From: a virus
Taxonomy: Duplodnaviria; Heunggongvirae; Uroviricota; Caudoviricetes
DNA length: 64,000 bases
IMG/VR virus record: IMGVR_UViG_3300021255_000108
Coordinates: 1-64,000 of that record
Reading direction: 5' to 3' (one strand)
This document shows, piece after piece, positions 3,609 to 57,905 of this stretch. How positions within the stretch are numbered: position 1 is the stretch's first letter; every line of letters starts with the position of its first letter. The notes under the pieces are model-generated. The model searched no databases and was not told where the DNA came from. It saw only the letters and a program-made list of their open reading frames with translations. Both the position numbers and the translations under genes were made by a program.

Positions 3609-3684
3609 TGCAGACAGGACACGCGGTCAAGTCACGAGGCTCATAACCTTCGGGGACTGGGTTCGACTCCCAGGTCTGCCACCA
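3609..3684 (+). tRNA. tRNA anticodon CAU (Met or lysidine-Ile2 type), CCA encoded
   Basis: acceptor gcagac/gtctgc with unpaired 1:72, anticodon loop containing CAT (loop may be 8 nt), T-arm ctggg-ttcgact-cccag, 3' ACCA. Confidence 0.4.
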
Positions 3685-4287: not shown

Positions 4288-4373
4288 ATTATTCTATGCT
4301 CGGGTCGAATAAAGGCAAGTTCGCCGGCCCTTCAAGCCGGAAATGTAGGGTTCAAGTCCCACCCTGAGTACCA
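4288..4373 (+). tRNA. tRNA anticodon UUC (Glu-type), CCA encoded
   Basis: acceptor gctcggg/cctgagt (two G-U), D-stem gaat/gttc, anticodon stem ccggc/gccgg with loop ccttcaa (C33 unusual), weak T-stem. Confidence 0.35.
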
Positions 4374-5013: not shown

Positions 5014-5140
5014 TTTAAAGACCTGTCAGCAATCTTTCTTATTGCATTTTGGAGCACGAGGTTCCAGGTTCGACCCCTGGGTTGGGGACCCTCCCCAACT
5101 AGCTCAATGGTAGAGCGCGTATTAGCGGGTCTTGTATTTT

Positions 5141-6991: not shown

Positions 6992-7204
6992 ATGTTTTAT
7001 TATAAAATTACTTATTGTGATCAATATAAAGATCAAGAATATACTCATTATGGAATTGTAATTGCTTCAAGTTACAGTGAAGCAGTAGAAAAGTTGGTAA
7101 ATGATTATGGGCCTGAAATTGAGTCTATAACCGTTGATGAAGAAATTGATACAGTCATAACTAAAGACGAGATAGATTTAGGAATAAAATTTTTAGATAA
7201 ATGA
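6992..7204 (+). CDS. hypothetical protein (70 aa)
   Basis: RBS aaggagaatgatATG directly after the tRNA. Confidence 0.4.
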   Translation: MFYYKITYCDQYKDQEYTHYGIVIASSYSEAVEKLVNDYGPEIESITVDEEIDTVITKDEIDLGIKFLDK

Positions 7205-7695
7205 TGGAATATAAACAATTAATTATTGCGCGCAAGGATCTTCAAATGCATCCTGGTAAATTGGCGGCGCAAGTATCTCATGCGTCAATGGCATTTCTAA
7301 CATCACAGATAAAGAAAACAGCAATGCCATTGACTAATTATATGTTGACTAATTTTGATGAGCCTGTTCAAAAGGTAATAAATCCTTTTGATATTAGTAA
7401 GTATGAAGCAAATATTGTCTTAGATAAAGATACTTATGAAAAATGGATTAATGGCTCTTTTACAAAAATTGTATGTGAAGCACGCAATAAAAATCATCTT
7501 TTAAGAGCAATAGAATATGCTAAATCAGTAGGATTATATACAGAAGGATATGATTACTTTCTTATTCGAGATAATTGTTTAACAGATTTAGTGCCAGAAG
7601 ATGAAGATGGTAGAACTTTAACTTGTATTGGTTTTAGACCATTGCCATTTACGCTTAGTCAAGTAATTTCTCGACATTATCAATTATACCGATAA
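7201..7695 (+). CDS. peptidyl-tRNA hydrolase, PTH2 family
   Basis: motif HPGKLAAQVSHASMAF matches the PTH2 GK-AAQ-HA signature; overlaps the upstream stop (ATGA). Confidence 0.6.
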   Translation: MMEYKQLIIARKDLQMHPGKLAAQVSHASMAFLTSQIKKTAMPLTNYMLTNFDEPVQKVINPFDISKYEANIVLDKDTYEKWINGSFTKIVCEARNKNHLLRAIEYAKSVGLYTEGYDYFLIRDNCLTDLVPEDEDGRTLTCIGFRPLPFTLSQVISRHYQLYR

Positions 7696-7969: not shown

Positions 7970-8045
7970 GGGGCGGTAGTCCAACGGCAGAGACAGAGGA
8001 CTTAAAATCCTTCCAGTGAGGGTTCGAATCCCTCTCGCCCTACCA
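7970..8045 (+). tRNA. tRNA with Leu anticodon UAA, type I (short variable arm), CCA encoded
   Basis: acceptor ggggcgg/tcgccct, D-arm gtcc-aacggcaga-gac, anticodon stem gagga/tcctt with loop cttaaaa, variable ccagt, T-arm gaggg-ttcgaat-ccctc, discriminator A. Confidence 0.55.
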
Positions 8046-8154
8046 GCTGGTGAAGCGATAACACCGTCTAAAAAAACACTTAACACAGGTAAAGGTGTTA
8101 AATAATTTTTAATGCGGTAAGTAAAGGCCGCGAGCATAAGGAGAGTAGATATTT

Positions 8155-8454
8155 ATGCGTTTTATATCTGATAAGACCGGAAAGGTTTATACTACACAAG
8201 AGGATTGTATCGCCGCTGAAAAGATTTTTGATGCGGAACAGCAAAAGAAAGAACTTGCTAAGAAACAGAAGGAAGAAACACGCGCTAAACGGGCTAAAGA
8301 AGTTGAGGATGCGTATACGGCTTACGTAGAGATGCGCAAGAATTATAATGATCTTGTAGCTAAATTCGTAAAAGACTATGGTTCATTCCATATGACACTA
8401 AAGAATGATGACAATGGCGTATTCAAAACTTTATTTGATAACTTTTGGTTCTAA
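8155..8454 (+). CDS. hypothetical protein, K/E-rich coiled coil (99 aa)
   Basis: ORF with RBS aaggagag. Confidence 0.45.
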   Translation: MRFISDKTGKVYTTQEDCIAAEKIFDAEQQKKELAKKQKEETRAKRAKEVEDAYTAYVEMRKNYNDLVAKFVKDYGSFHMTLKNDDNGVFKTLFDNFWF

Positions 8455-8495
8455 TAGTTCTTTGGCGCTCTATTAAATTAGAACGCCATTTATAT

Positions 8496-8570
8496 GCGGA
8501 CGTGGTGTAATGGTAACATGCCGGTCTCCAAAACCGTGCGATTTAGGTTCAAATCCTAACGGTCGTGCCA
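8496..8570 (+). tRNA. tRNA-Trp (CCA), CCA encoded
   Basis: acceptor gcggacg/cggtcgt (one A-G mismatch), D-stem gtgt/acat, anticodon stem ccggt/accgt with loop ctccaaa, T-arm ttagg-ttcaaat-cctaa; preceded by hairpin ggcgctcta-ttaaa-ttagaacgcc. Confidence 0.55.
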
Positions 8571-8897
8571 GGGGAGCTATTACGCTCAAATATTAGTATC
8601 ATATGCTACGGTATGGAGAGCAAAACAGTCGTTTGCAAGGATGATAGTGTAGGCACTCCCCACCATTTTAAAGAAGGAATTAAATGTGTAGAGTTTAGGA
8701 TAGGTAAATGGACCTATTGAATCAATTAAATTTGCCATCCATCCAAAATGTAAAAATATAATTATGTATTCGTTGTCTGAAACTTAGATCATAGAACATC
8801 CAGAGGATTAGCGTTGTATTTATTGGCTGACTTGTCCAGTTTGTCACGAATCTTTTGAAGTTAATAAAAGACCTTTAGATTGAAAAATTTAAAAATT

Positions 8898-8908
8898 TTT
8901 GATATAAT
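8898..8908 (+). promoter_or_regulatory. extended -10 promoter (tTGaTATAAT)
   Basis: consensus motif upstream of RBS aagggagaaaag. Confidence 0.45.
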
Positions 8909-8939
8909 ATATATACAAAAAGTAAGGGAGAAAAGATTT

Positions 8940-9164
8940 ATGAAGATGATGGAAATGCCACAGTCAGAAGGATATACAATTTATACTTGGGGTGACGTTA
9001 CCAAAGCGCATAGATTAAAAATGAAATATCATCATTTTACTTGCCCTTATTGTGATTGTGTTTTTGACGCAGATAAAGATCATTATGAATATCATAGTAA
9101 TAGATATGATGAAGAATGGTATACTACCATATGCCCTTGTTGTAAAAATGAATTTTCTTCTTAG
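8940..9164 (+). CDS. Cys-rich small protein (putative zinc finger)
   Basis: CPYCDC...CPCC; ATG 8940 after a strong RBS (the track ORF starts earlier at 8880). Confidence 0.4.
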   Translation: MKMMEMPQSEGYTIYTWGDVTKAHRLKMKYHHFTCPYCDCVFDADKDHYEYHSNRYDEEWYTTICPCCKNEFSS

Positions 9165-9170
9165 GATTAT

Positions 9171-9247
9171 GCCGTTGTAGCTCAAATAGGAAGAGCAGCT
9201 GATTTGTAATCAGCAGGTTGTTGGTTCGATTCCAATCGGCGGCTCCA
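9171..9247 (+). tRNA. tRNA-Thr (UGU), CCA encoded
   Basis: acceptor gccgttg/cggcggc, anticodon stem gctga/tcagc with loop tttgtaa, T-arm gttgg-ttcgatt-ccaat. Confidence 0.65.
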
Positions 9248-9317
9248 AGCCCCACACAGCAAACTACAAGTAAGCATATTTCTGTTAAAAATATAAGCTA
9301 TTATTGGGACTAGTTTT

Positions 9318-9500
9318 ATGAAAAAATGTTGTGATAATTGTAAATATTATGAATGGTATTATGATAAATGTAATAAATATAATTGCGAAGTAGATGGCCG
9401 TAGTGTTTGTAATGGTTATGAAAGTACGACGAAATGGTTAAATATGGAACAAAGTATTTATTTTACAGATTATAATCCAACTATTGAACTTGCCGACTAG
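9318..9500 (+). CDS. Cys-rich small protein (60 aa)
   Basis: CCDNCKYYEWYYDKCNKYNC motif; the 3' end overlaps tRNA-Gln, and the terminal TAG would be read through 6 codons to a TGA. Confidence 0.35.
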   Translation: MKKCCDNCKYYEWYYDKCNKYNCEVDGRSVCNGYESTTKWLNMEQSIYFTDYNPTIELAD

Positions 9501-9564
9501 TCTAACGGCAGGACATGAGACTTTGACTCTCAGCGTGATGGTTCGATTCCATCGTCGGCAGCCA
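9491..9564 (+). tRNA. tRNA-Gln (UUG), CCA encoded
   Basis: acceptor tgccgac/gtcggca with U1-A72 and G73 (Gln identity features), anticodon stem tgaga/tctca with loop ctttgac, T-arm gatgg-ttcgatt-ccatc. Confidence 0.65.
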
Positions 9565-9683
9565 GATTGTTGTCCGGCCGGCAACCCAGTGGATGGATTG
9601 TGACGCATCCCGTGCTACTACTGCGAGACGGTTCACGCTTAGGCTTTGCATGCGCACCACGGCCGATGAAGGTAGCACATTAT

Positions 9684-9759
9684 GCTCCATTAGCCCAACG
9701 GCAGAGGCAATGCGCTCAAAACGCATACAGTAAGGGTTCAAATCCCTTGTGGAGTACCA
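9684..9759 (+). tRNA. tRNA with Leu anticodon CAA, type I, CCA encoded
   Basis: acceptor gctccat/gtggagt, D-arm gccc-aacggcaga-ggc, anticodon stem atgcg/cgcat with loop ctcaaaa, variable acagt, T-arm aaggg-ttcaaat-ccctt, discriminator A. Confidence 0.55.
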
Positions 9760-9765
9760 TTTTAT

Positions 9766-9841
9766 GCTCCATTAGTCCAACGGCAGAGACGACTGGCTTA
9801 GAACCAGTGTAGTGAGGGTTCGAATCCCTTGTGGAGTACCA
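9766..9841 (+). tRNA. tRNA with Leu anticodon UAG, type I, CCA encoded
   Basis: same acceptor as 9684 (paralogue), anticodon stem actgg/ccagt with loop cttagaa, variable gtagt, T-arm gaggg-ttcgaat-ccctt. Confidence 0.55.
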
Positions 9842-10183
9842 GAAGGTACTGCTTTCCTGAAGAAATACTTCAAGCAGCGGAGAAGCTAAAACTTCGTAAG
9901 ATAGGGGCACGGTCAACTTAGAGCGGTGAGAACGAGATATCAAGAACCGCAAGTTCGTCGTGATTAAATGAGGGAACACTCGGATCTACCTATTAAATAG
10001 CTTAGAATGACGGACAAGGCTAAGGCGTATGATATTTTGAGGTTGTGGGAGATATTAGTAACCAAATGAGCTATTGACGGATAGCAAGACTCTGAAACAG
10101 GTACGCCTGCTCTGCTAATATTATTTGTACCACTAAATTAAAATAAACAGGACGGTAGGACGCGAGTGGTCATTCTAATGATT

Positions 10184-10270
10184 ATTGGGGAGTAGTTCAA
10201 TCGGCAGAACACCGGTCTCTAAAACCGTGATATCCCTCTGACGGAGGTAGTTGTGGGTTCGAGTCCCACC
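10184..10270 (+). tRNA. suppressor tRNA, anticodon CUA (reads UAG), CCA encoded, unusually long (~24 nt) variable region
   Basis: acceptor tggggag/ctcccta (U1-A72, G73), D-arm gttc-aatcggca-gaac, anticodon stem ccggt/accgt (identical to tRNA-Trp) with loop ctCTAaa, variable region gatatccctctgacggaggtagtt containing a cctc/gagg helix, T-arm gtggg-ttcgagt-cccac. Confidence 0.7.
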
Positions 10271-10302
10271 TCCCTAGCCATTATTATATTTAGGAAACGA
10301 TT

Positions 10303-10680
10303 ATGTGGCCATTTAAAAAAAAGAAACAAGAAATAACAACAACAAAAGAGCCTCCTGAGTGCGTACATAAATATAAAGATTTTCCTTGGTATATTGAAAG
10401 TCACACATATAATTATCCTAACTCACGCAAAACTATTGATTATGAAATTAAAATTATGGAACCATATGTGTGTGTAAAATGTTATCACAGAAAAGATATT
10501 GTATTGGCTACACATGCAGGTAGACATACAACGTATGAAAATTATTGGAGTACTATTCAAGAATTAGAAAAACAATATAAAGATAAAATAAAGTCTCGAC
10601 CAGAAATAGAAGATGAAATTAATGATATGATTCTGGTTGACAGAGAATATATTGATATATATCATCAAATTGTAAAATAA
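10303..10680 (+). CDS. hypothetical protein (125 aa), Cys/His cluster
   Basis: ORF directly after the tRNA array; followed by terminator. Confidence 0.45.
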   Translation: MWPFKKKKQEITTTKEPPECVHKYKDFPWYIESHTYNYPNSRKTIDYEIKIMEPYVCVKCYHRKDIVLATHAGRHTTYENYWSTIQELEKQYKDKIKSRPEIEDEINDMILVDREYIDIYHQIVK

Positions 10681-10690
10681 AAATTTGGAC

Positions 10691-10720
10691 AACACTCTTA
10701 AAAAAGAGTGTTGTTTTTTT
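10691..10720 (+). terminator. rho-independent terminator (aacactctt-aaaaa-agagtgtt, then T9)
   Basis: perfect 8-bp hairpin followed by a T-run. Confidence 0.7.
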
Positions 10721-10743
10721 TATTTCTTATGAAGGTGATAAAA

Positions 10744-11133
10744 ATGGCATATATTCATTATAACCCAAACCCCAATAGATGGGACACAGGAGACTGTGTA
10801 ATTAGAGCTTTGTCTTTAGCCACCGGTTTTGATTGGGAAAGAGTATATTTAGAATTATGTATTCAGGGTTTTATGATGGGGAAGATGCCTAGCACTAATT
10901 CAGTATGGGGCGCTTGGTTAAAAGGAAGAAATTTTTCTCGTCACATTATACCAACAATGTGTCCCGATTGTTATACAGTAAAAGATTTTTGTTACGATCA
11001 CCCAAGGGGCTTATATTTATTATGTACAGGTGATAACAACGGCACTCATATACTCACTTGTTTAAATGGTGATTATATAGATTCTTGGGATAGCGGTAAT
11101 GAAATACCTATATATTATTGGAGGAAAAATTAA
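10744..11133 (+). CDS. putative papain-like / C39-like cysteine peptidase (130 aa)
   Basis: candidate catalytic Cys in DTGDCVIRAL and His in NGTHILTC, then DSWDSG; RBS gaaggtga. Confidence 0.4.
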   Translation: MAYIHYNPNPNRWDTGDCVIRALSLATGFDWERVYLELCIQGFMMGKMPSTNSVWGAWLKGRNFSRHIIPTMCPDCYTVKDFCYDHPRGLYLLCTGDNNGTHILTCLNGDYIDSWDSGNEIPIYYWRKN

Positions 11134-11135
11134 AA

Positions 11136-11600
11136 ATGGCGTATTATAATTCATATTATTCTACTGGGTATGCTAATCCATATTACGCTGCATATTAGCC
11201 AAATATGAACTAGCCATAGACTTATACTCCTGTTCAACAGCAATAGCCGCAAATGGCGAACAATAATGGTATCGTATTAATAGCCAGCGAAGGAGATGCG
11301 CAAACATATCCTGTCGCTCCTGGTAACACACAATGGATGAAAGATTAGTATAAAGATTATTTATACATTAAAACAGTTGATCCTTCTGGAATGATTATGC
11401 CTTTGCGAAAATTTAAATTAGTTGAAGAAACAAATCAAGAACAAAAACAACAGTCAACACAACCACCAGTAACATTTAATCCAGATTTATATGTTACTTG
11501 GGAAGCACTAGAACAAAGATTAGCAGAAAAATCATCTAAACCGTCTAAAACGCCTCCTGTGGCGAGAAAGGTAACTAATAATGATGTACAACAATAGTAA
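11136..11600 (+). CDS. Q/N/Y/P-rich low-complexity protein read through 6 in-frame TAG codons (about 154 aa)
   Basis: single frame from ATG 11136 to TAA 11598 with TAG at 11196, 11211, 11217, 11244, 11346 and 11595; with TAG=Q it reads ...AAYQPNMNQPQTYTPVQQQQPQMANN... and ends DVQQQ; the track ORF 11391..11597 is its C-terminal part. Confidence 0.5.
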
Positions 11601-11793
11601 TCCTATGCAACAATTATTAAATATGTACGGTAATATGAATAATTTAATGACTCAATATAATAATTGGAGCCATAACTTTAATGGAAACGCAGAACAAGAA
11701 GTGCGCAATATGTTAAATTCAGGCCAATTGTCGCAGCAACAATTTAATGCAGCCAGGCAATTGGCGCAAATGATTTTAAATAATGGACTATAA
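11581..11793 (+). CDS. N/Q-rich small protein (70 aa)
   Basis: ORF from track; low-complexity N/Q/M composition. Confidence 0.4.
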   Translation: MMYNNSNPMQQLLNMYGNMNNLMTQYNNWSHNFNGNAEQEVRNMLNSGQLSQQQFNAARQLAQMILNNGL

Positions 11794-11850
11794 ATCTAAT
11801 TATTAGATTTATATATAAAACAATTATATCAGAAAGGAAGTTATGTCCAA

Positions 11851-12612
11851 ATGGGTTTTTCTTCTAATGATGCTGGCTCAGTAGCCGATATGGCAGCAGT
11901 TATGGGCAATCACAATAATGGTGGTTTGTTCGGCGGAGATAATTCCGGATGGGGCTTAATTCTCTTCTTAATTATCATCCTTGGATGGGGTAATGGTAAT
12001 TGGGGCTACAACAATGGTGGCAATAATGGTGGAGCAACTTATGTTGTTAATGATGTACAACGTGGGTTTGATCAAAGCGCCATTATGAACGGCATATCTG
12101 GATTATCTACTGGTCTAGCTAATGCTGAAATTTCCCGTTGTAACCAACAGGCCAACATTCTTCAAGCTATGAATAGTGGCCTTATGGGAGTTACTAATCA
12201 ATTAAATACTATGGCAATGACAAACCAATAGTGTTGCTGTGATAATCGTGCGGCTATTGCCGATCTGCGTTATAATGTAGCAACAGAAGCGTGCGCCGAT
12301 CGTTCTGCGATCGATAATGCATTACGTGATGTTCTTGCTGCAAATAATGCTAGCACACAGCGCATTCTTGATCAGATGTGTCAAGATAAACTTGATGCAA
12401 AAGATGAAATCATTGCTAACCTCCGTACACAATTGAATATGTTGAATTTACAACAGAGTCAGAGTGCACAGACTGCTCAAATCTTAGCAGACAATGCTCG
12501 TCAGACTTCAGCTTTAGAGCAATATTTAAATCCTGTTCCGATCCCTGCTTATCAGGTGGCTAATCCAAATTGTTGCGGTCGGTATAATAATAATAACTGC
12601 GGCAACTTCTGA
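11851..12612 (+). CDS. Gly/Asn-rich plus coiled-coil protein read through one TAG (about 253 aa)
   Basis: track ORFs 11851..12231 and 12376..12612 are in the same frame, joined across TAG 12229 with no other stop (…AMTNQ-TAG-CCCDNRAAIADL…). Confidence 0.5.
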
Positions 12613-12627
12613 TTGGAGGTATGCTAA

Positions 12628-13107
12628 ATGGTTGAACATACCAACAATGCGTTACAAACAGTTAATCCTGGTGAAACTGTAATTTTTACCGCATCATCCA
12701 ATCCTTGCCGCAGAGGGTTTGTTCGTCATCGCGACGATACTGGTAATTTTCTTTTAAGTGGATATATACCTTCTGCTTATGGATGTCCTTGTTGCAATAA
12801 TTGTAATCGTTCTGCTGTATATCTATGTGAGTTCGGAGCGAATATAGCTATTCCAGAAGGCGGAACAGTTGGTCCCATTTCTTTAGCATTTGCTATTGAT
12901 GGTACTACAATTCCAGCATCTACTATGACTGTTACACCAGCCGCGGTTGAGGAATTTTTTAATGTTGGCAGAGCTACTAATATTGATATTTGGAATGGTT
13001 GCTGTCAGACTGTAAGTGTGCGCAATATTTCCGATCAACCAATTTTAGTATAGAATGCTAATATTCTTTTTAGCCGACCAGATTTATTAGTAAGTAGATA
13101 AGGAGGG
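12628..13107 (+). CDS. hypothetical protein with a C-terminal extension through TAG 13051 (about 159 aa)
   Basis: frame continues 17 codons past the TAG to a TAA at 13105, just before the next start at 13108. Confidence 0.4.
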
Positions 13108-13524
13108 ATGTCTAATATGGATCCTATTATGATATATGAACAGGCGAGTGATATGATTGCTCGGGAAATTCAAAAATTAGTAGATAAAGGCAATATTGAT
13201 AAAGAGACACTCTGCCTTATCGGAGAAGCTATTGATGTACAAAAAGATTTAGAAACTCTAAAGGTAATGAAAAACGAAGGTGGTTATAGTCGAGATGATT
13301 ATAGCTACGATGGACAAAACAACCGTAGAGGACGTCCTAATAGAAGCTATGATGGCGACTCTTGGGACAATTATTCTAATAGAGGTAGAAGCTATGATAA
13401 TATGAGTAGTCATGGCGTTACCGAACAATTAATTTATAAACTAGAAGATGCCATGAATATGGCTGAAGACCGTCAAAGTCGGGAAGTAATACGCATGGCT
13501 CTAGAGAAATTGGAGAAGATGTAA
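13108..13524 (+). CDS. hypothetical protein (138 aa)
   Basis: RBS aaggaggg. Confidence 0.45.
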   Translation: MSNMDPIMIYEQASDMIAREIQKLVDKGNIDKETLCLIGEAIDVQKDLETLKVMKNEGGYSRDDYSYDGQNNRRGRPNRSYDGDSWDNYSNRGRSYDNMSSHGVTEQLIYKLEDAMNMAEDRQSREVIRMALEKLEKM

Positions 13525-13528
13525 ACTT

Positions 13529-13849
13529 ATGATTTGTCGTATTACTTGGACAGAAACTTTAGAAGAAGGTCAACAGCAACATGTTGTTGACTTTTCTTTT
13601 AGAGATTATCGATTAAATTTAGTAAATGAAGATTACTATTTAACTTGTAATTTGTTCTATCATTTTACTCACGAGAATGAAGTATTGTTTGAACAAGCAA
13701 TTTTAAATCATACTTGCGAAGTAAATAATGTAGAATTAATCATCAATGATGGTAGTTCACAAACTTATAATTCATTTCATATAATTAATGACTATACTTC
13801 ATATACAACTCCAGATGGTATACCGTTAATTATGTTACAATTAAGATAA
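13529..13849 (+). CDS. hypothetical protein (106 aa)
   Basis: ORF; followed by terminator. Confidence 0.4.
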   Translation: MICRITWTETLEEGQQQHVVDFSFRDYRLNLVNEDYYLTCNLFYHFTHENEVLFEQAILNHTCEVNNVELIINDGSSQTYNSFHIINDYTSYTTPDGIPLIMLQLR

Positions 13850-13853
13850 AAAT

Positions 13854-13888
13854 AAGGGCATCAATTCTTTTGATGCCCTTATTTTTTT
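13854..13888 (+). terminator. rho-independent terminator (aagggcatc-aattctttt-gatgccctt, then T-run)
   Basis: 9-bp hairpin followed by a T-run. Confidence 0.7.
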
Positions 13889-13904
13889 ATTTAGAGGTAA
13901 TAAA

Positions 13905-14711
13905 ATGGTAGTTAAAGTAAATAATATAACATTAACTTCAATTGCACAAAATTGGTATCCTGGTGTAGTAACACCAGGAGACACAGAAAGTCATCATTTT
14001 ATATATAGGCAATCAACTGGGCCGTTTTCTATGAATATATCCTTTTCTGGGTGTGATAATAACGATATGATTTATTTAAATGGTGCTTCTCAATTCTATG
14101 ATACTTAGTACCAATCATATCGGTACATATGTTTAAGTCGTTAGCACTCTACACAGGTTAGTAGTTCAGCGGATAGTACATTATATATACCAATTCCTGC
14201 ATCTGGCACCAAAACATTTAAAGTATACGCTGGGGCTGGAATATATGTTAATAATGTTTATTGTTTATTTGATTGGCAACCAAACTCTCACGGCCCTTTA
14301 GTCGCTAAAGGTGAGAAGATTACAGCTAGTAAAATGAATGCTTTAAAAAATTATGTATTAACTTCAATAAAATGGACAATGTGGAAGAGAAACGTAAATG
14401 CGCCAGCACTGTCTGTTTTTTATCCTCCAGTAGGAAGTTTGATAAAATACAAACAAGATACTAATGAAAACTATTATGATTCAACAAATTTATTATTATG
14501 GGAATTAATAGCTCCGTATGATAGTGTGTTTTATTATAATTATGCTGATGAACCATTTATCGAATATACTGAAACAGATAATTTTAAGGGTAAAATAATT
14601 ACAGCAGATATTTTTAATCGTTATGATTATTATGGAAAAACTATGACATATGACAAAGTAATTATTCGTATGGATGGACACGATTATATCGGTCCAGATC
14701 ATTATGTTTAA
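13905..14711 (+). CDS. hypothetical protein, paralogue A, read through 2 TAGs (about 268 aa)
   Basis: track ORFs 13905..14108 and 14334..14711 share a frame; TAG at 14106 and 14151; shares NSHGPLVAKGEKITASKMNALKNY and YPPVGSLIKY with the next gene. Confidence 0.5.
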
Positions 14712-14720
14712 GGTGATTAT

Positions 14721-15549
14721 ATGGCACGTTCCGGTGTACTAAAAATAAACAATGTAACAATAGCAGATCCATATTATGGTAATGGATATGTTTATAATTT
14801 AACATATTCAAGTGCTAATTTACCGATAGCAGTTAAAATAACTTGGTCTGGATTCGTTCATGATTATGAAGAGGGACAAAGTAACATTATTATTGATAAT
14901 ACTGAAAAAGTTATAACAAACCCTCAATATAAAGATTATACTCATATATGGTTTAGATACGATCAATAGTCATAGACTATCGATACGTTATGGAATCAAC
15001 CTAGAATAAATATACCAATATCATCTTCTGGGTCAATAATATTAAATGTTATAATAAGAGGAAAGCTTACGATAAACTATTAGTATGTTACTTTTTCATG
15101 GCGACCAAATTCCCACGGTCCCTTAGTCGATAAAGGTGAGAAGATTACCGCTAGTAAAATGAACGATTTAAAAAATTATATATGGGATAGCAGTAAACTT
15201 AAAAATATAGACCCTTTTACAGATTATCCTCCTAGTTATGAAGTCACAACCCCCCCAATTTTTTATCCACCAGTTGGTGAATTGATTAAATATAGACATG
15301 AAAATAATAATTATATGTCTAACCCAGAACGAAAATATTTTTTAGGTGATAGTCAATTAGTACAAGTAAGATAGCGTATGGTGGAAGATTTACCATATGC
15401 TGCTAGTATTGACAGTATTGATAATTATTTTAAAAACAAAATAATTACATCAGATGATTTTAATCGTTATGATTTATATAATAAAGTAGTTAAAAGTGGT
15501 TGGAGATTTCCAGAAGCTACACACATATATGATTATAATGTCACATAAA
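14721..15549 (+). CDS. hypothetical protein, paralogue B, read through 4 TAGs (about 276 aa)
   Basis: track ORFs 14721..14969 and 15159..15374 share a frame; TAGs at 14967, 14973, 15081 and 15372; ends at TAA 15547. Confidence 0.5.
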
Positions 15550-15642: not shown

Positions 15643-17142
15643 ATGGCTACAACATTATTAAATGCTTTAAAAGAAACTACCAATTACACTCTGACAGAAA
15701 ATGGTGGAGTAACTCATAAGACTACCAATAGCGACTTGCTTGATATGTTTGCTATGGGTGCGGCAATGCGCAATAGACCAGTAGAGGATGTTATTCTTAT
15801 GTTTAAAAAGGCATATGAAGAAAATCCAGAATTGGCTATGAAGATGTTGTTTTATATCCGTGATGTGCGCGGTGGACAGGGCGAACGTAGATTTTTCAGA
15901 GAATGTATTAAATGGGCCTCAAATAACAAAGACATTCAATCCTCTATTTTAAAGAATATTCAGTATATTCCAGAATTTGGACGTTGGGATGATCTGTATT
16001 CACTTGTTGGTACCTCTTTTGAAAAAGATGTTATGCACTTTATTAAGAAACAGCTGGCATTGGATGTGCAGAGTACAACTCCATCTTTGTTAGCAAAATG
16101 GTTAAAGAGCGAAAATGCATCCAGTAAAGATAGCATAAAGCTTGGAAACATTACTCGTAAGTATCTTAATATGACACATAAGGAATACCGTAAAGTATTG
16201 GCAGAGTTACGTAAACGAATTAATATCGTTGAACGTTTGATGTCTGAAAATAGATGGAATGAAATTGAATTTGATAAAATTCCATCAAAAGCAGGATTGA
16301 TCTATAAGAACGCATTTGCGCGCAGAGATATTATTAAAGAAAAGTATAAGGCATTTGCGCAGGACGTAACATCTACTGTCAATGCTGGTACATTGTATCC
16401 ATATGAAGTCGTAGATAAAGCAATTCAGTTGTTCCGTTCCGCACGAAATATCGATTTTGATAATACAGACAGACTAATGATTAATAAATATTGGGATAAT
16501 TTAACAGATTATTTCAATGGCGCTAAATTGGACGCGTTGTGCGTTGTGGATACATCTGGGTCTATGATGGGAACGCCAATAAATGTTGCTGTATCACTGG
16601 GACTGTACTGCGCTGAGCGCAATAAAGGACCTTGGCATAATCATTATATCAGTTTCTCTTCCTATCCACAGTTGATTAAAACCGATGGAGTGGATTTTTG
16701 TGACAAAGTAAAACGTATTGTCCAGACTAACTTGTGTGAAAATACTAATATTGAAGCTACTTTTGATTTAATATTAAAGACAGCGATTGTCTCCAAAGCA
16801 AAATTACCAGAATATATTATTATTATCAGTGATATGGAGTTCGATCAGGCAACCAATTGTTGGTGGCGTAGTAATACAACTCTTATTAATAAAGGTAATG
16901 CTGAAACTGTAATGGAAGGCATTGAACGCAAATTTATCGCAGCCGGCTTACAGATGCCAAAGTTAATTTACTGGAATGTTAATGCGCGTCAAGCTAATAT
17001 TCCAATGATTGGCAATCATAGAGTAAGTTACGTATCTGGTTTTAGTCCTTCTATTTTTACAGCAATTTTGACTGGGAAAACTGGATGGGACTTAATGTTG
17101 GAAGCTATTGATAACGATCGGTACGCGTGTATTCACGCATAA
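15643..17142 (+). CDS. vWA-domain protein with an N-terminal helical domain (TROVE/DUF2828-like; possibly a Ro60-like RNA-binding protein), 499 aa
   Basis: MIDAS motif VVDTSGSM, second acidic motif IIISDMEFD; N-terminal RDVRGGQGERRFF region. Confidence 0.55.
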   Translation: MATTLLNALKETTNYTLTENGGVTHKTTNSDLLDMFAMGAAMRNRPVEDVILMFKKAYEENPELAMKMLFYIRDVRGGQGERRFFRECIKWASNNKDIQSSILKNIQYIPEFGRWDDLYSLVGTSFEKDVMHFIKKQLALDVQSTTPSLLAKWLKSENASSKDSIKLGNITRKYLNMTHKEYRKVLAELRKRINIVERLMSENRWNEIEFDKIPSKAGLIYKNAFARRDIIKEKYKAFAQDVTSTVNAGTLYPYEVVDKAIQLFRSARNIDFDNTDRLMINKYWDNLTDYFNGAKLDALCVVDTSGSMMGTPINVAVSLGLYCAERNKGPWHNHYISFSSYPQLIKTDGVDFCDKVKRIVQTNLCENTNIEATFDLILKTAIVSKAKLPEYIIIISDMEFDQATNCWWRSNTTLINKGNAETVMEGIERKFIAAGLQMPKLIYWNVNARQANIPMIGNHRVSYVSGFSPSIFTAILTGKTGWDLMLEAIDNDRYACIHA

Positions 17143-18135: not shown

Positions 18136-19403
18136 ACTATGGAATTAATGAAAAGCCAAGAAATTGGCGAGACGCAGTTGGATATACCGCCTAGTTTGTA
18201 TTCGCAGTTCTTACAGCAACTATCCTCATTGCTACAATCTGCGGGACGCCGGTTGCGGCCGGACTTGTGGCAGCAGGCATTTCAACTGTGTTCTTCCTAT
18301 TGCTTACCGGATTCAAAGCCCCCATCGTTATCTCCAATTCAGGAGCAACTGTTGCGGCAGTCGTGGGCGCAATCGCCCTTGCGGGTCCGGTGTATGAAAA
18401 TTATACTGGGGTGTTACTTGGCGGGTGCGTTATCGCATGTATCTACGGAATCGCTTCTTTCTTTATTAAAAAATTCGGAACAAGATGGCTGACTAAACTA
18501 ATTCCTCCAATAGTAAGCGGTACTACTATTATGGTAATTGGAGCCAATCTTGCTAATTTTATTCCAACTTACGCTCAAGTAGGAGGACAATATTCATTAT
18601 GGGGAATTTTAGTCGCCATAATTACTGCTATAACAGTAGCTTTATGCGCAAGATACGGCAAGGGCATCATCAAAACTTTACCATTCTTAATTGGCTTGCT
18701 TGTAGGATATGTCGCATCTTTCATTCTGACTTTGTGCGGAATCCCACTTGTAGATATTTCACAGCTCTCGTGGCACGGACTATTGGCATTTCCAGACTTC
18801 GCGTTTTTACATATAAACTTTTCCACATTTAATTGGTCCACTTTACCACAGATTGTGTTATCTTTTGGTTTAGTAAGCCTTGCCGCAATGACTGAGCATA
18901 TTGGAGATATGACAACCGCTAGTGCTGTTGTTGGAAAGGATTTATTGAGTGAGCCTGGTTTACATCGAACTTTACTTGGTGATGGCATTGGGAGCCTTAT
19001 CGGCTGCTTTATTGGCGCTCAACCGAATACTACATATTCTGAATACACCTCTACTATGGCTGTTTCAGGTGTTTACAGTAGCTGGTTTACTTTGTCCACT
19101 GCTATCTCTCTCATCGCATTGGGATTTCTACGACCTTTTAATCAATTTATTACAGCCCTTCCTAATTGTGTATTTGCTGGAGTATCTGTGTTTGCCTATG
19201 GTTTTATTGCTCTGGCAGGATTAAGGACTTTAATTAATAGCGCTATTGATTGGTCCAATATTAAAAATCAACTTATTTTTGCCGCGATGTTTACAACAGG
19301 AATTAGTGGCATAGCAATTCAATTTGGCGCATTTAATTTAAGCGGTATTGCTTTAACTATGGTCGTCGGTGTTATTTTAAATGTAATTATAAAAGAGCTG
19401 TAA
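18132..19403 (+). CDS. uraA: uracil permease (NCS2/NAT family, UraA-like) with an in-frame TAG at 18192-18194
   Basis: GLLVGYVASF and VGKDLLSEPGLHRTLLGDGIGSLIGCFIGAQPNTTYSEYTSTMAVSGVYSSW align with E. coli UraA; conserved TM1 (FVFAVLTATILIA vs UraA FAMFGATVLVP) lies upstream of the GTG 18267 track start and is separated only by TAG; start TTG 18132 overlaps the upstream TGA. Confidence 0.6.
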
Positions 19404-19757: not shown

Positions 19758-19835
19758 TGATATATTACCAGTTTTATTTATCATTATATACATACTTATT
19801 ATAAAAATTTGGTTAGATACATAAGGAGTATAAAT

Positions 19836-21224
19836 ATGGCATATACTGGTTTTGTTGTAAAAGTTGAGCATTTGCGCAAACATGCCAACGCAGATCGTCT
19901 TCAAATCGCAACTTTTTTTGGAAATGACACTATCGTAGGTTTGGATACTAAAATTGGCGATCTTGGTGTTTATTTTCCAGTAGATGGTCAGCTGTCTGAA
20001 TCTTTTTGCGCGGCAAATGACTTGGTACGTCGTAAAGATGAGAATGGCAAGCCAGCAGGTGGTTATTTAGATCCTGAAAAGCGCAATATTAAAGCCTTGA
20101 AATTGCGCGGTGAAAAGTCGGATGGTCTTTATTTGCCAATTACTTGTCTTGCTAATTTTTGTAAAATCTCTGATTTAAAAGTTGGAGACACTATTGATAC
20201 GCTAAATGGAGAATTAATTTGCCAAAAGTATATCCCACGGAGAAATCCCACTTCTAACTTTAATGGGCCAAAGGCTCCAAAAAAGCCTAAAGTTAATATT
20301 GCTCCTACTTTTTACGAGCACGTAGATACCGCACAATTGGCTTATAACCTTGCTGCGTTTAAAACTGGCGATGTTGTACAACTTACCTTAAAGATGCACG
20401 GAACCTCTGGGCGCACTGGTTATCTTCCTCTTGTTCATACTAAACAGACTTGGTTTGATAAACTGCTTCACCGTCCAGGAAAGGAATATAAAGAGTATGG
20501 TTATATCACTGGTACTCGTCGAGTAGTGCTTGATGGCACTCGCACTGGTGGTTTCTATGACTCTGATGATTTCCGTGAAGCAATGGCGGCTAAGTTTAAA
20601 GGAAAACTTCATAAAGGTGAAACTGTTTATTATGAAATTGTTGGCTTCCAGGGGCCGAATGGCGCACCTATTATGGCAGAAGTGTCTAACGCAAAAGTAA
20701 AGGATAAAGAGTTTGTTAAACAGTATGGCGAAACTACTACTTTTGCTTATGGTTGCGACCCCGCTGGCACTTATGAGATGCAAACTAATGAAGCAGGAGA
20801 TATGGTTATGCCTCCCTGCTGTGAGATATATGTCTATCGTATGACTATGGTAAATGAAGATGGTGATGTGGTAGAATATTCTCCAGCGCAAATTAAAGAG
20901 CGTTGCGAACAAATGGGTGTTAATACTGTTATGGAATTTGAGACTTTTATTATTCCGGATGCTGTGCGATTACCTGACACTGTTGGGTCTATACAAAGAG
21001 TAAATGCCGGTGAATATGTTCTTCGTAAAGTAGAACAGTATTTTGATGGCCCCGACCCTATTGGTGGTATTCATGTGCGCGAAGGTGTTGTTGCTCGTAT
21101 CCTAAATCGTTCCAACTTCGCAGTATACAAACATAAGAACTTCTCTTTTAAGGTGCTGGAAGGCATTGCGAAAGATGAAGCTACTGCCCCAGATATTGAA
21201 GAAGCACAGGAACTAATTAAATAA
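19836..21224 (+). CDS. RNA ligase (Rnl2-like nucleotidyltransferase) with an N-terminal tRNA-binding OB-fold (Myf/Trbp111-like) domain
   Basis: N-terminal VVKVEHLRKHANADRLQIATFFG...GVYFPVDGQL resembles CsaA/Trbp111 tRNA-binding domains; KMHGTSGR matches nucleotidyltransferase motif I (KxHG); ATG 19836 follows RBS aaggag. Confidence 0.5.
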   Translation: MAYTGFVVKVEHLRKHANADRLQIATFFGNDTIVGLDTKIGDLGVYFPVDGQLSESFCAANDLVRRKDENGKPAGGYLDPEKRNIKALKLRGEKSDGLYLPITCLANFCKISDLKVGDTIDTLNGELICQKYIPRRNPTSNFNGPKAPKKPKVNIAPTFYEHVDTAQLAYNLAAFKTGDVVQLTLKMHGTSGRTGYLPLVHTKQTWFDKLLHRPGKEYKEYGYITGTRRVVLDGTRTGGFYDSDDFREAMAAKFKGKLHKGETVYYEIVGFQGPNGAPIMAEVSNAKVKDKEFVKQYGETTTFAYGCDPAGTYEMQTNEAGDMVMPPCCEIYVYRMTMVNEDGDVVEYSPAQIKERCEQMGVNTVMEFETFIIPDAVRLPDTVGSIQRVNAGEYVLRKVEQYFDGPDPIGGIHVREGVVARILNRSNFAVYKHKNFSFKVLEGIAKDEATAPDIEEAQELIK

Positions 21225-21894: not shown

Positions 21895-22062
21895 ATATAT
21901 ATCAAATGGGAGAAAAAGAAAAATGATTATTTTAATTGCGGTTTGTATTGTTTTAGCACTCGCGGTTTATGCGTGTTTAACTGTTGATCCAAGAACCATT
22001 GAAGATGATATAGATCAGATGGACTATATTAACAAATGGAAACGAGACCAGAGGTAATAAAA

Positions 22063-22911
22063 ATGCACGACACTTATTTTTTTACAGATATCCACGGTAG
22101 AAAAGATTTTTTTGACGCTATTATGTCTTATATAAAAAGGCAAGACCCGCAAGCAACGATTGTTTTTGGTGGTGATGCTTGCGACAGAGGCAATTATGGG
22201 TATGAAATTATGCGTGCCCTATTGAATAATCCACAAGTTGTTTATTTAAAAGGTAATCACGAAGATCTATTCGTAAAAGCCGCAAGAGAATGTTTAGAAT
22301 TTATGCGCTCAATGAATATAAAAATTGAGCATTTTGATGACGCTCATAATCTATTATATAGCATAGATAGTTATTCAAGAAACCCCATTACCTTACACCT
22401 TTATAATGGCGGGAATGATACTCTGGTTAAATGGTTGGTTGAAGGAAAAGCTGATCCAAATTTCATTGATGAAATTAATAAACTTCCTTTAACTTTTTCA
22501 TATGAACAATATGATTTTTGTCATGCTGGAAGTACTTATGAGAATTTTAGTAATGCCGCAAATGATGAGTACAATAATGAAACAGTGGATAAAGACGTAC
22601 AACGTGACATACTATGGGATAGAGAAAGTTTTAATATTCCGTGGAAAGAAAACAGATATGTCCTTCACGGTCATACGCCAATTATGTACCTTCCATTTAT
22701 AACAGAAGAAGCAGAAGAACTTTTTAAAAAGGTTCCTCAACCTGTACTTTATAATTCAAAAGTTGATATGGATACTGGTGCGGTATTTAGTAACCATTGT
22801 TTTCTTATGAACTGTACTACGAATCAATTAATTCATTTTTTCAAACAGGATAATGAAATACGAATAATTGAAAACGCATCTTTTTATAGTATTGAAATAG
22901 AGGAAAATTAA
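22063..22911 (+). CDS. PPP-family serine/threonine protein phosphatase (lambda-phosphatase-like)
   Basis: motifs FTDIHG (GDxHG-like), GGDACDRG (GDxxDRG) and KGNHED (GNHE); ATG 22063 follows a GAGG RBS. Confidence 0.6.
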   Translation: MHDTYFFTDIHGRKDFFDAIMSYIKRQDPQATIVFGGDACDRGNYGYEIMRALLNNPQVVYLKGNHEDLFVKAARECLEFMRSMNIKIEHFDDAHNLLYSIDSYSRNPITLHLYNGGNDTLVKWLVEGKADPNFIDEINKLPLTFSYEQYDFCHAGSTYENFSNAANDEYNNETVDKDVQRDILWDRESFNIPWKENRYVLHGHTPIMYLPFITEEAEELFKKVPQPVLYNSKVDMDTGAVFSNHCFLMNCTTNQLIHFFKQDNEIRIIENASFYSIEIEEN

Positions 22912-23403
22912 ATGTATACTTTATACATTATGTGCGGCCCGCCTGGTAGTGGAAAAACTACTTATGCCAAACGTTTCTTATCTCATTGTACATATATAAG
23001 CAGAGACAGTATTAGATTTAAATTGCTTGAAGAAGGACAAGGATATTTTGATAATGAAGATAAAGTATTCAAAGAATTTATTTCTTCTATTGGTCGCGCT
23101 TTATTGTTCAATCACGTAGTTGCTGACGCCACGCATTTAAATGTTTTTTCGCGCAATAAACTAATACACGGTTTGGAATACTATTATCGTAATCGACAAA
23201 TGGAACCGAATTTTTCTATTGTGTATGTGATAATGGATACTCCATTACATACATGTTTAGAAAGAAATAGCAAAAGACAAGGCAATGAATGTGTGCCGAC
23301 AGCAGCATTAAAAGATATGTTTAATAAATTTACTTGTCCCACATTGACAGAATCGTCTCGATGCGTAGCTCAACAAATTATTCGAGTTAAAGAGGAGGAA
23401 TAA
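22912..23403 (+). CDS. P-loop polynucleotide-kinase-like kinase (T4 Pnk kinase-domain-like)
   Basis: Walker A MCGPPGSGKTTYA and ISRDSIR, resembling T4 Pnk GCPGSGKSTWA...INRDDYR. Confidence 0.55.
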   Translation: MYTLYIMCGPPGSGKTTYAKRFLSHCTYISRDSIRFKLLEEGQGYFDNEDKVFKEFISSIGRALLFNHVVADATHLNVFSRNKLIHGLEYYYRNRQMEPNFSIVYVIMDTPLHTCLERNSKRQGNECVPTAALKDMFNKFTCPTLTESSRCVAQQIIRVKEEE

Positions 23404-23404: not shown

Positions 23405-23995
23405 ATGTGCGACATTTGGCTAACAAGTGATACGCATTTTTATCACGATAAAGAATTTCTTTATGGACCAAGAGGTTTTCCGTCTGTTAAAGAAATGAAT
23501 GAAGCTATTATTGAGAATTGGAATAAAGTTGTTAAGCCAAATGATATAGTGTATCATCTCGGTGATGTTTTTATGGGAGATTATGACGCCAATCTTCTAA
23601 AAAAACTAAATGGTTCTATTTCTCTTATTCAGGGTAATCACGATACGGTTAATAAAATTGGCGCAATGTATTTGACTAATAAAATAATCGATGTAGCTGT
23701 AACGAGTACAATTCTTACAATTAGAAAATTTCATTTTTTCCTTTGTCATTATCCTGTATTAACCGCAAATTTTGATGATGATAATTTTAATCGACACGTA
23801 ATCAGTCTACACGGTCATACACATCAAAAGAAGAATTGGCTCTTCGTTGATAACCCATTTATTTATCACGTTGGAGTTGATTCTCATAATTACACACCTG
23901 TTAATATTGAAGAAATCATTGTTGATATTCGTAATACTTGGACAGAAATGGCTCATTTAAATATAACACCTCATGGAATTTACAACAATTATTAA
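23405..23995 (+). CDS. calcineurin-like metallophosphoesterase
   Basis: SDTHFYHD, GDVFMG and GNHD metal-binding motifs. Confidence 0.6.
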   Translation: MCDIWLTSDTHFYHDKEFLYGPRGFPSVKEMNEAIIENWNKVVKPNDIVYHLGDVFMGDYDANLLKKLNGSISLIQGNHDTVNKIGAMYLTNKIIDVAVTSTILTIRKFHFFLCHYPVLTANFDDDNFNRHVISLHGHTHQKKNWLFVDNPFIYHVGVDSHNYTPVNIEEIIVDIRNTWTEMAHLNITPHGIYNNY

Positions 23996-24006
23996 AGGAG
24001 AACGTA

Positions 24007-38460: not shown

Positions 38461-39396
38461 ATGGCTTATAGCGTTCATTTAGTAAAAGAAATCAAGTGTT
38501 AGCAATTTACTTTAAATAACTTAAATGAATCATTAAAAACCGCCAAACAAGATTTAGATACTTTAGCGCAATAGCGATAGAGTGTATATTTAGAAGCTCA
38601 ATAGTTAAAAGAAGATTCATTTGAAATTAAAAAAGATATTAATTTTTTAAATAAAACTGCTTCTGAATTACGAAATAATTTAAAAGAATAGAAACAACAA
38701 AATGAAGAAGAACTTTTACATCAAAAGGCTCAATTAAAAACTTCACTTGATGCTTATAGTCAAGAAGTTAAAACATCAATGGAGCAAGACTTTCTAACTG
38801 TGCAAAAAGATTTTATTGATTAGTTTAAAGTAGAAAATACTAAAAAATTAAATGCGGCAAAAGAATTATCTGATAAATTAAAAGAATTAAAAACGTCAGT
38901 AGATGCCGCTACAAGAATAGCAAAAGCTGAGTTGGAAAAAGAAAACTATAATCAATATCATTCTTTACAAATCTCTCAAGAAAGCATTCAAGATATTAAT
39001 AAAATTGAAGCAGCAGTTATGAATGTAAGTCCAATTGCCAAAACTGCAATCGCAAAAGTCATTTGGAAAGTTTATTATGAAAAAGCATACACCGATTTAG
39101 TTGGTAGATTATTATAGGCCCCGACTTGCGGTATTTATAAAATCACCGATATACATAATCGATGTTATGTTGGATAGGCTGTAGATATTGCTGAGAGATG
39201 GAAGCAACACATTAAACGAGCAATAGGTGCAGAAGAGCGCACAAATAATAAGTTATATCCAGCTATGGATAGACTTGGTCCGTGGAATTTTACTTTTGAT
39301 GTTATTGAAGAATGTCCAAGAAATAAATTAAATGAAAGAGAAGATTATTGGCAGGAATTTTATCACGCAAAGGATTTTGGGTATAGTATAAAATGA
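38461..39396 (+). CDS. GIY-YIG nuclease-domain protein with an N-terminal Q-rich coiled coil, read through about 9 TAGs
   Basis: one frame from ATG 38461 to TGA 39394; C-terminal GIYKITDIHNRCYVGQAVDIAERWKQH matches GIY...YVG; the track ORF 38932..39117 lies inside it. Confidence 0.5.
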
Positions 39397-57446: not shown

Positions 57447-57905
57447 TGTTATTAGCATTAGATTAGGCAACCTCAACTACTGGATATTCTATTTGGGACA
57501 ATGATAAGTTAATTAAATTCGGTCATTTCACTTTTACAGATGAAGAAATACCGCATAGATTCCATAAACTATGTAAGGAAATTACAGTCTTGTGTCAGTT
57601 GTATAGAATAGATACAGTGGTAATTGAAGACATATAGATGCAAGCAGGCAATGTAGCAACTTTTTAGAAACTTGCGCAAGTCCAAGGAGCAATATTAGAA
57701 ACGGTTTTGAGTTTAAAATTAAACTATATGATTATTAAACCCAGCGAATGGCGAGCAGAGTGCCATTTCCTCAAAGGGCAGGATAAACATAGAGAAAGCC
57801 AGAAAAAAATTGCTTAGACTTGGGCTCAACAATAGTATCAAATTAGATGCACTTAGGACGAGGCTGATGCTATATGTATAGGTTACGCGACAATAAAACA
57901 AACAA
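57447..57905 (+). CDS. RuvC-like Holliday-junction resolvase read through about 6 TAGs
   Basis: one frame from ATG 57447 to TGA 57903; N-terminal MLLALD-TAG-ATSTTGYSIW and C-terminal DEADAICIGY fit the RuvC/YqgF-like pattern. Confidence 0.45.

Follow-up and report, generated by a model that had tools for sequence, protein, structure and literature searches.

We describe a suppressor transfer RNA (tRNA) gene in the first 64,000 nucleotides (nt; hereafter the window) of a tailed phage genome, IMG/VR record IMGVR_UViG_3300021255_000108 (Caudoviricetes). The tRNA has the anticodon CUA, which would read the amber codon UAG, and its variable region holds a further hairpin whose loop copies the anticodon loop of a glutamine tRNA (tRNA-Gln). 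This hairpin covaries across phage amber suppressors and has a parallel in opal suppressors, whose variable arms carry a tryptophan-type loop. On balance we favour reading the tRNA as a functional amber suppressor that inserts glutamine, with a variable region that would act as a pseudo-anticodon arm and keep glutamine identity for the charging enzymes of the host. Somewhat more tentatively, we propose that the host glutaminyl- or tryptophanyl-tRNA synthetase (GlnRS or TrpRS) may itself read such an arm, leaving the true anticodon to pair with the stop codon, which would make the arm a natural identity element.

An amber suppressor tRNA with an additional hairpin

ARAGORN called 14 plus-strand tRNA genes from 2.6 to 10.3 kb of the window; the last of them, at 10186–10280, is the amber suppressor tRNA(CUA), of 95 nt including an encoded CCA. 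A first-pass annotation, made from the sequence without database searches, had picked out the right tRNA, but its interval (10184–10270) begins 2 nt too soon and misses the last 10 nt at the 3′ end. Its central claim, a tRNA with a CUA anticodon that decodes UAG, is borne out by the ARAGORN call, by a match of the Rfam tRNA family RF00005 to 10186–10277 (55.0 bits, above the gathering score of 29; E = 9e-10) and by the minimum free energy (MFE) fold of the single sequence, which is a cloverleaf plus one additional hairpin. All four cloverleaf helices covary across relatives.

The acceptor strand TGGGGAG (10186–10192) pairs with CTCCCTA (10270–10276), giving U1–A72 and G2·U71, and is followed by G73 (10277) and the encoded CCA (10278–10280); the earlier description of a Gln-like acceptor end was correct. 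Read from the sequence, the D stem is GUUC/GAAC with an 8-nt loop, and the D arm resembles those of the Gln and ‘Leu’ tRNAs of the same tRNA island, as had also been noticed. The anticodon arm, CCGGT-CTCTAAA-ACCGT (10212–10228), has its anticodon CTA at 10219–10221 and a C27·U43 mismatch; its loop CU-CUA-AA (10217–10223) has the 7 nt, U33 and purine at position 37 that characterize an amber suppressor. An anticodon stem shared with the phage tRNA-Trp(CCA) had been reported, and we found that the whole 17-nt arm is identical to that of this gene (8496–8570, plus strand) except at position 35, where C is replaced by U. The T arm is GTGGG-TTCGAGT-CCCAC (10253–10269).

Between the anticodon and T arms lies a variable region of 24 nt, GATA-TCC-CTCTGAC-GGA-GGTAGTT (10229–10252). 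Here TCC (10233–10235) pairs with GGA (10243–10245), a stem supported by covariation in the family, to form a hairpin at 10233–10245 whose 7-nt loop, CTCTGAC (10236–10242), has CTG (10238–10240) where an anticodon would stand. Of the first-pass description of this region, the length stood; the 4-bp helix did not, as it reflects the register of the single sequence (CCUCU/GGAGG), and the family supports UCC/GGA with a 7-nt loop. The ordinary tRNA-Gln(UUG) of the phage, which had been placed at 9491 and was found at 9491–9564 (plus strand), has the loop CU-UUG-AC, U1–A72, G73 and a short variable loop, so that the pseudo-anticodon loop CUCUGAC of the window can be set beside a CUUUGAC loop from the same phage.

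Several elements of glutamine identity are present in the body of the suppressor, namely a weak 1–72 pair (U1–A72), G73 and G10. Positions 2 and 3 are G2·U71 and G3–C70 in the window, where most family members have G2–C71 and C3–G70; the rules for these positions, G2–C71 and G3–C70, come from E. coli and may not be those of the host; position 1:72 is UA, AU or a mismatch across the arm-bearing family. The remaining element, the anticodon Y34-U35-G36, is missing from its usual place: the true anticodon is C34-U35-A36, and YUG is found only in the variable-arm loop, at 10238–10240.

The phage comes from a sheep-rumen metagenome. The identical suppressor tRNA, with the same coding neighbourhood, occurs in two other independent assemblies from the sheep-rumen metagenome series SHIW14-1_SAMN02144230, and it is therefore not an assembly artefact. 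Megablast of positions 8000–14000 against GenBank phages returned no match. The 344-nt gap upstream of the gene (9842–10185) gave no Rfam match at E ≤ 1 and a fold z-score of −0.22, and a promoter and terminator scan around the gene found sites no commoner than in shuffled sequence, with a single terminator-like hairpin (10687–10716) after the next gene.

ARAGORN prints the label tRNA-Pyl for any CUA anticodon. tRNA-Pyl is compact: its variable loop has 3 nt, its D loop is small and its anticodon stem has 6 bp; it is found alongside pyl genes. We rejected this label for the suppressor, which has a 24-nt variable region, an 8-nt D loop and a five-position anticodon stem with a mismatch; no pyl genes were found among the annotated window proteins.

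The hairpin is conserved and covaries in phage amber suppressors

A scan of IMG/VR anchored on the 15-nt anticodon arm yielded at least 119 viral loci with 112 tRNA(CUA) genes. Counts in this and the following section refer to the matches listed. About a third of the tRNA(CUA) genes were 84–95 nt long, and 30 unique long tRNAs, the window included, had a variable hairpin with the 7-nt loop YU-YUG-AR. The commonest loops were CUCUGAA (16), CUUUGAA (4) and UUCUGAG (3), with CUCUGAC, CUCUGCC, UUCUGAA, CCCUGAA, UUCUGCA, UUUUGAU and UUUUGAG seen once each. The wobble place of the pseudo-anticodon was occupied solely by C or U, giving 24 CUG and 6 UUG, which are the two glutamine anticodons. By sequence, YU-YUG-AR is the tRNA-Gln anticodon loop, with U33, a CUG or UUG triplet and A37.

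When 29 of these tRNAs were aligned with MAFFT, the three pairs of the stem varied in a compensatory manner (UA 13, GC 5, CG 3, UG 3 and AU 2 at the first; CG 13, GC 9, UA 3 and UG 1 at the second; CG 24 and AU 1 at the third). The stem was paired in 89.5% of cases compared with 59.5% after shuffling, with a covariation score of 0.706 against 0.170 and none of 500 shuffles as high; controls in which the register was slid scored at most 0.21, against 0.71. The register preferred by the single-sequence MFE fold (5 bp closing a GAC triloop) was rejected on the same alignment, being 71.5% paired compared with 71.2% in shuffles, 327 of 500 of which scored as high. The acceptor, D and T stems of the arm carriers are diverse (mean column identity 72%), so the carriers are not one recent clone. 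A Shine–Dalgarno role for the 3′ side of the arm was also rejected: the sequence is GGAGG in the window and AAGGAGGU in locus L030, but GCAGG, GCCGA, GAUGA or GGCGU in others, with the hairpin kept.

In a second scan, in which CTCTAAA and a common T loop were held constant and the anticodon stem could vary, at least 72 new unique tRNA(CUA) were collected, 17 of them long. Two of these 17 were type-II-like. Among the other 15 long arms, 11 had the YU-YUG-AR loop, on eight different anticodon stems and in one case (locus L342) as exactly CUCUGAC on a 5-bp stem; the remaining four had YUGA within a hairpin loop of another size. Over both scans, about 40 other phage tRNA(CUA) genes bear the same arm.

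The arm is restricted to suppressors and is absent from the ordinary tRNA-Gln and tRNA-Trp of the same loci. Among 826 unique tRNAs from the first two locus sets, a length of at least 84 nt was reached by 37 of 101 CUA and 35 of 51 UCA tRNAs, compared with none of 29 Gln, one of 24 Trp and about 1–2% of other type-I isoacceptors.

Two further tRNAs from these loci are of note. A 99-nt CUA tRNA in locus L024, to which ARAGORN assigned a 4-base anticodon, has a 6-bp variable hairpin whose loop, GUCUGCU, contains CUG. A 96-nt tRNA-Ile with anticodon UAU in locus L059 has a long variable arm containing CGAUAA; this may be a pseudo-anticodon for Ile (GAU), in which case the principle could reach past stop codons.

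Opal suppressors carry a tryptophan-type arm

If the arm copies the cognate anticodon loop, then opal suppressors that insert tryptophan are expected to carry a CCA loop, and such tRNAs were found. The pattern CGGTCTTCAAAACCG retrieved at least 57 tRNA(UCA). The variable hairpin loop was NU-CCA-AN, mostly CUCCAAA, in 26 of 35 unique long tRNA(UCA), and these have Trp-like bodies with A1–U72 and G73; the other nine were tRNA-Sec-like. The stem of the opal arm, of 4–7 bp, also covaries (91.2% paired compared with 69.4%; score 0.528 compared with 0.150; 0 of 500 shuffles as high). Pseudo-anticodon type and suppressor type corresponded throughout (30/0 compared with 0/26; Fisher P = 1.5e-16). We define pseudo-anticodon-arm suppressor tRNAs as those that combine a stop-codon anticodon with a variable hairpin on a covarying stem, the loop of which bears an anticodon for the inserted amino acid; the window tRNA, with the loop CUCUGAC, is a member of this group. 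Opal suppressors with the CUCCAAA arm, 93–100 nt long, were seen in loci L141, L147, L155, L161, L164, L168, L181, L200, L208, L230, L234 and others.

The arm is also present in a described phage. Phass-1 (OQ749652, 62445–62610; L281, 5907–6072) encodes two tandem Sup-CTA tRNAs, one short and one long, and the variable arm of the long one, CCCUCUGAAGGGG, has the same motif as that of the window. The Phass-1 record labels both as ‘tRNA-TERM’, and its paper makes no mention of the arm. When the whole window suppressor was used as a blastn query, it matched only Phass-1, apart from a chance T-arm match. A short and long suppressor pair like that of Phass-1 is also seen in loci L016 and L111.

UAG is read as glutamine

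Reading TAG as sense raised the coverage of the window by open reading frames (ORFs) of at least 300 nt from 73% to 88%. In-frame TAG was then present in 25 of 60 ORF-level genes, the stops under TAG read-through being TAA in 44 and TGA in 16, and fragments merged into recognisable genes, several small ones among them as well as those that encode an AAA_24 ATPase, a DHH protein and a Mom-like protein. TAG positions fall inside Pfam domains; AAA_24, for example, covers residues 19–214 over a TAG at 41345.

The residue inserted was assessed from two TAG-rich genes. A lysin with SpoIID, NlpC/P60 and SH3 domains (59288–60673, minus strand) has nine in-frame TAG, and its alignment with 120 database homologues placed glutamine in the TAG columns in 118/118, 119/119, 87/109 and 71/109 cases, against a background of 4.6% glutamine. 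In the alignment of a RuvC-like resolvase (57446–57928, plus strand; six in-frame TAG), five of the six TAG columns were glutamine; this protein had no match in the PDB by sequence. Some homologues come from recoded relatives in which the glutamine was assigned by the gene caller, and we therefore checked one relative (L280) at the DNA level. Ordinary glutamine codons stand in L280 at three TAG positions of the window, while two L280 TAGs correspond to glutamine codons in the window. From this interchange and the glutamine columns we conclude that UAG is read as glutamine. The sequence comparisons thus identify UAG as a sense codon for glutamine in this phage, in agreement with the residue that the first-pass annotation had presumed.

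In-frame TAG is dense in the minus-strand late block (58.4–64 kb), which includes three tail-fibre-like late genes (60695–63998, minus strand; 4, 5 and 3 in-frame TAG, the last gene running off the window). This density fits the concentration of recoding in late and lysis genes described by Borges et al. (2021 preprint). Eight in-frame TAG are found in a gene for a coiled-coil and GIY-YIG protein (38461–39396, plus strand), and 6, 1, 1, 2 and 4 in a block of small genes that directly follows the tRNA island (11103–15548, plus strand), which are called at full length on a sister contig. Large replication genes, which lie at 15.6–57 kb, are mostly without TAG, among them those for gyrase B and A, ligase, DnaB, primase, Pol III alpha and NrdD, functions that were read from the translations and not from a family search. 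The phage is partly recoded, in a patchy manner and with no clean early/late split: the plus-strand GIY-YIG, RuvC, Mom-like, AAA_24 and DHH genes stand among the replication genes and hold 1–8 TAG, and their large neighbours (within 15643–56385) hold none.

The suppressor tRNA would permit translation of the TAG-containing lysis, tail-fibre and some other genes. Neither a synthetase nor a release factor was found among 20 window proteins scanned. The host is possibly a clostridial bacterium of the Lachnospiraceae, judged solely from the relatives of the lysin.

How the arm might be read

GlnRS and TrpRS rely heavily on anticodon bases; GlnRS uses U35 and G36 together with the weak 1–72 pair, G73 and G10. 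In bacteria that lack GlnRS, a non-discriminating glutamyl-tRNA synthetase (GluRS-ND) also reads the anticodon, and GatCAB reads U1–A72. Either route, GlnRS or GluRS with GatCAB, may be the one that the host uses. The change from YUG to CUA keeps U35 and removes G36, a major recognition element for GlnRS, or for non-discriminating GluRS followed by GatCAB. We propose that the additional arm, being flexible, would display an intact glutamine anticodon loop. Class I enzymes approach a tRNA from the side opposite its variable loop, and on a tRNA bound in this way the arm would lie on the solvent side. The host enzyme, which would on this proposal be a synthetase, might then recognise, recruit or efficiently charge the suppressor as tRNA-Gln, with the remaining identity coming from U1–A72, G73, G10 and U35, and the true anticodon would decode UAG on the ribosome.

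Several observations weigh against this proposal. The pseudo-anticodon loop sits at the core of the tRNA, yet a monomeric GlnRS would have to use it. Most phage tRNA(CUA) in our samples have no arm, so it is not required for suppression, and 28 of 29 analysed phage tRNA(CUA) inserted glutamine in an E. coli extract (2025 preprint, PMC12636597), from which it follows that plain CUA tRNAs can already be glutaminylated. The stem has only 3 bp, and the MFE fold of the window tRNA prefers another register; RNAalifold on the family alignment predicted neither the variable hairpin nor the D stem, and is uninformative for helices so short. Comparison of the pseudo-anticodon loop with a tRNA-Gln of the same locus could be made at only three loci, and the match at position 38 is seen only in the window. 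Finally, the families were gathered by patterns anchored in the anticodon arm or in the T loop; the counts given for them are those of the matches listed and not population frequencies.

Other readings of the arm differ in how well they account for these data. It is possible, though we doubt it, that the arm is a selected copy of the glutamine loop whose reader is not the charging enzyme; it could serve as a decoy or shield against host anticodon nucleases directed at tRNA-Gln, as a site for a tRNA-modifying enzyme or a phage protein, or as a bulky determinant that repels TrpRS. Conservation and covariation reveal selection and not the partner, the phage encodes an RNA ligase, a polynucleotide kinase and phosphoesterases, enzymes that typically repair the damage done by anticodon nucleases, and mischarging by TrpRS is a real risk for a tRNA whose anticodon arm matches that of tRNA-Trp. 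A purely steric anti-determinant, however, needs no conserved YUG, nor a CCA in opal suppressors, and a decoy would be equally useful on ordinary tRNAs, yet the ordinary tRNA-Gln and tRNA-Trp have no arm; an identity element would be expected to correspond exactly to the inserted amino acid, as the pseudo-anticodon does in two separate systems. That the arm is instead a functionless relic of a duplicated anticodon arm, on a plain CUA suppressor charged via U35, U1–A72 and G73 alone, seems improbable to us. A neutral arm would decay, whereas here the loop is kept and the stems show compensatory changes while the acceptor, D and T arms have diverged (72% mean column identity); the wobble place varies only between C and U, the bases of the two glutamine anticodons; and the pattern recurs on eight other anticodon stems. 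The duplication itself may well be the origin of the arm, as the second hairpin in opal suppressors, GGGUCUCCAAAACCC, has the appearance of a direct duplicate of the first, CGGUCUUCAAAACCG, and many suppressors do function without an arm (including those of PMC12636597).

Two structural alternatives bear on what kind of molecule the suppressor is. Its two hairpins both have anticodon-like 7-nt loops, and the 5 nt between the second hairpin and the T stem are a normal length for a variable loop, so the tRNA might refold to use the second hairpin as its working anticodon arm, with one gene reading both CAG and UAG. We regard this as very improbable: a 3-bp stem cannot substitute for the 5-bp anticodon stem, a canonical anticodon arm directly adjoins position 26, exactly as the first hairpin does here, and the phage already has a tRNA-Gln(UUG). 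To our knowledge, there is no tRNA in which the insertion of a complete arm at position 26 is tolerated. Least probable of all is a type-II suppressor, derived from tRNA-Ser, tRNA-Leu or tRNA-Tyr and reading UAG as one of those residues, although the first-pass annotation had likened the variable region to those of type-II tRNAs. Its 24-nt length and the presence of G73 in tRNA-Ser also would fit such a derivation, and Ser-like tRNA(CUA) do occur in phage contigs L003, L049 and L061. The likeness fails in the detail: the covarying stem has just 3 bp, with 4 and 7 unpaired nt on its two sides and a conserved, Gln-type 7-nt loop, and the D arm and acceptor are Gln/Trp-like. The TAG columns hold glutamine and not serine, leucine or tyrosine, and the few true type-II-derived suppressors in the same sample, with a Ser-like D arm and a GC-rich 5-bp variable stem, are without the motif. 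One of the latter adjoins a near-identical tRNA-Ser.

Relation to known tRNAs

The amber suppressor of a code-15 phage is a molecule of a known kind; the nearest known thing to its arm is engineered. The TAG-to-Gln (code 15) suppressors of crAss-like phages, Lak phages and Phass-1 (Borges et al. 2021 preprint; Peters et al. 2022; PMC10607447) have the same CUA anticodon and also stand in a tRNA cluster, and in those phages, as in the window, in-frame TAG lie in lysis and structural genes and are read as glutamine. They are described in these papers by anticodon only, with no mention of a variable arm or of an anticodon-like loop, and many are of an ordinary 72–78 nt.

Among E. coli suppressors, supE is a tRNA-Gln with the anticodon CUA, and Su7 is a tRNA-Trp with CUA that is charged with glutamine. 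Both resemble the window tRNA, with its Trp-type anticodon arm and UGGGG acceptor, in that CUA is set on a Gln/Trp-type body and glutamine identity would come via U35, a weak 1–72 pair and G73. They differ in being single-base anticodon mutants with 4–5-nt variable loops and reduced charging, whereas in the window tRNA an insertion of 19 nt brings back a YUG loop at another place in the molecule. The type-II tRNAs (Ser, Leu and bacterial Tyr) share with it a variable region of more than 10 nt that forms a hairpin; their arms, unlike this one, have longer stems, short loops without fixed sequence and little unpaired flank, and are read by shape and orientation. A type-II arm is expected to have a stable stem and to begin near position 45.

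The engineered analogue was made by Mukai (2020, PMC7590224), where a copy of the cognate anticodon arm placed on the variable arm raised the aminoacylation of amber suppressors in vivo in E. coli. There, as in the window, the true anticodon was CUA and the variable arm bore the cognate anticodon-arm copy. That system was synthetic, was built on an allo-tRNA chassis for histidine identity and mostly used a HisRS (histidyl-tRNA synthetase) fused to an additional anticodon-binding domain; the window arm is natural, concerns glutamine (and, in opal suppressors, tryptophan) identity, has a much shorter stem and has no known modified synthetase. Mimics of anticodon arms also occur in mRNA, where the E. 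coli thrS operator is bound by the threonyl-tRNA synthetase ThrRS and the mRNA of the yeast aspartyl-tRNA synthetase AspRS holds another (PMC9976931). As proposed for the phage arm, a hairpin outside the working anticodon copies the cognate loop and is read by an anticodon-binding domain; those mimics lie in mRNA leaders and repress translation, whereas the window arm lies inside a tRNA and would promote charging. We found no description of a natural pseudo-anticodon arm in the literature searched on recoded phages, suppressor screens, non-canonical tRNAs and tRNA identity, coverage of which was incomplete.

Other features of the window

Three tRNAs with Leu anticodons (UAA, CAA and UAG, at 7970–8045, 9684–9759 and 9766–9841) are just 76 nt long, with a short variable loop and A73; a long variable arm is the norm in bacterial tRNA-Leu. 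In its D arm each of the three is similar to the phage tRNA-Gln. Rfam also gave tRNA-like matches at positions without an ARAGORN call: 4298–4370 (44.4 bits), with the loop CC-UUC-AA and C at position 33; 3609–3681 (32.8 bits), with a CAU anticodon; and 2380–2439 (37.4 bits), which is partial.

Genes for RNA repair and tRNA housekeeping lie at 19809–21224, 22036–22911, 22912–23403, 23405–23995 and 7201–7695; the set comprises an RNA ligase (phrog_968), a polynucleotide kinase, two phosphoesterases and, inside the tRNA island, a PTH2-type peptidyl-tRNA hydrolase. Within the island, a weak Rfam match to the Y-RNA-like family YrlA (5056–5121; 29.8 bits compared with a gathering score of 69) is probably due to chance; a DUF2828/DUF7788 protein is encoded 10 kb downstream of it, at 15643–17142. 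A xanthine/uracil permease (18267–19403) and a flotillin/Band_7 protein (23938–25458), both assigned by Pfam, are unusual auxiliary genes for a phage.

Implications for recoded phages

Matching synthetases are rarely found in recoded phages, and host GlnRS and TrpRS must somehow be repurposed (Borges et al.). A conserved arm whose loop corresponds to the inserted amino acid in amber/Gln and opal/Trp suppressors alike offers a concrete hypothesis for how suppressors are charged. If it is true, the arm would add a new type to the natural identity elements of tRNA, one whose like has until now been met only in protein engineering, and would account for the ability of recoded phages to exploit host synthetases that ordinarily demand the cognate anticodon. 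It would also provide a sequence signature that predicts the amino acid a suppressor inserts, and a natural design for efficient suppressors in genetic-code engineering, where the loss of anticodon recognition is limiting. Should the arm have another reader, it would still define a widespread and unannotated structural class of phage tRNA.

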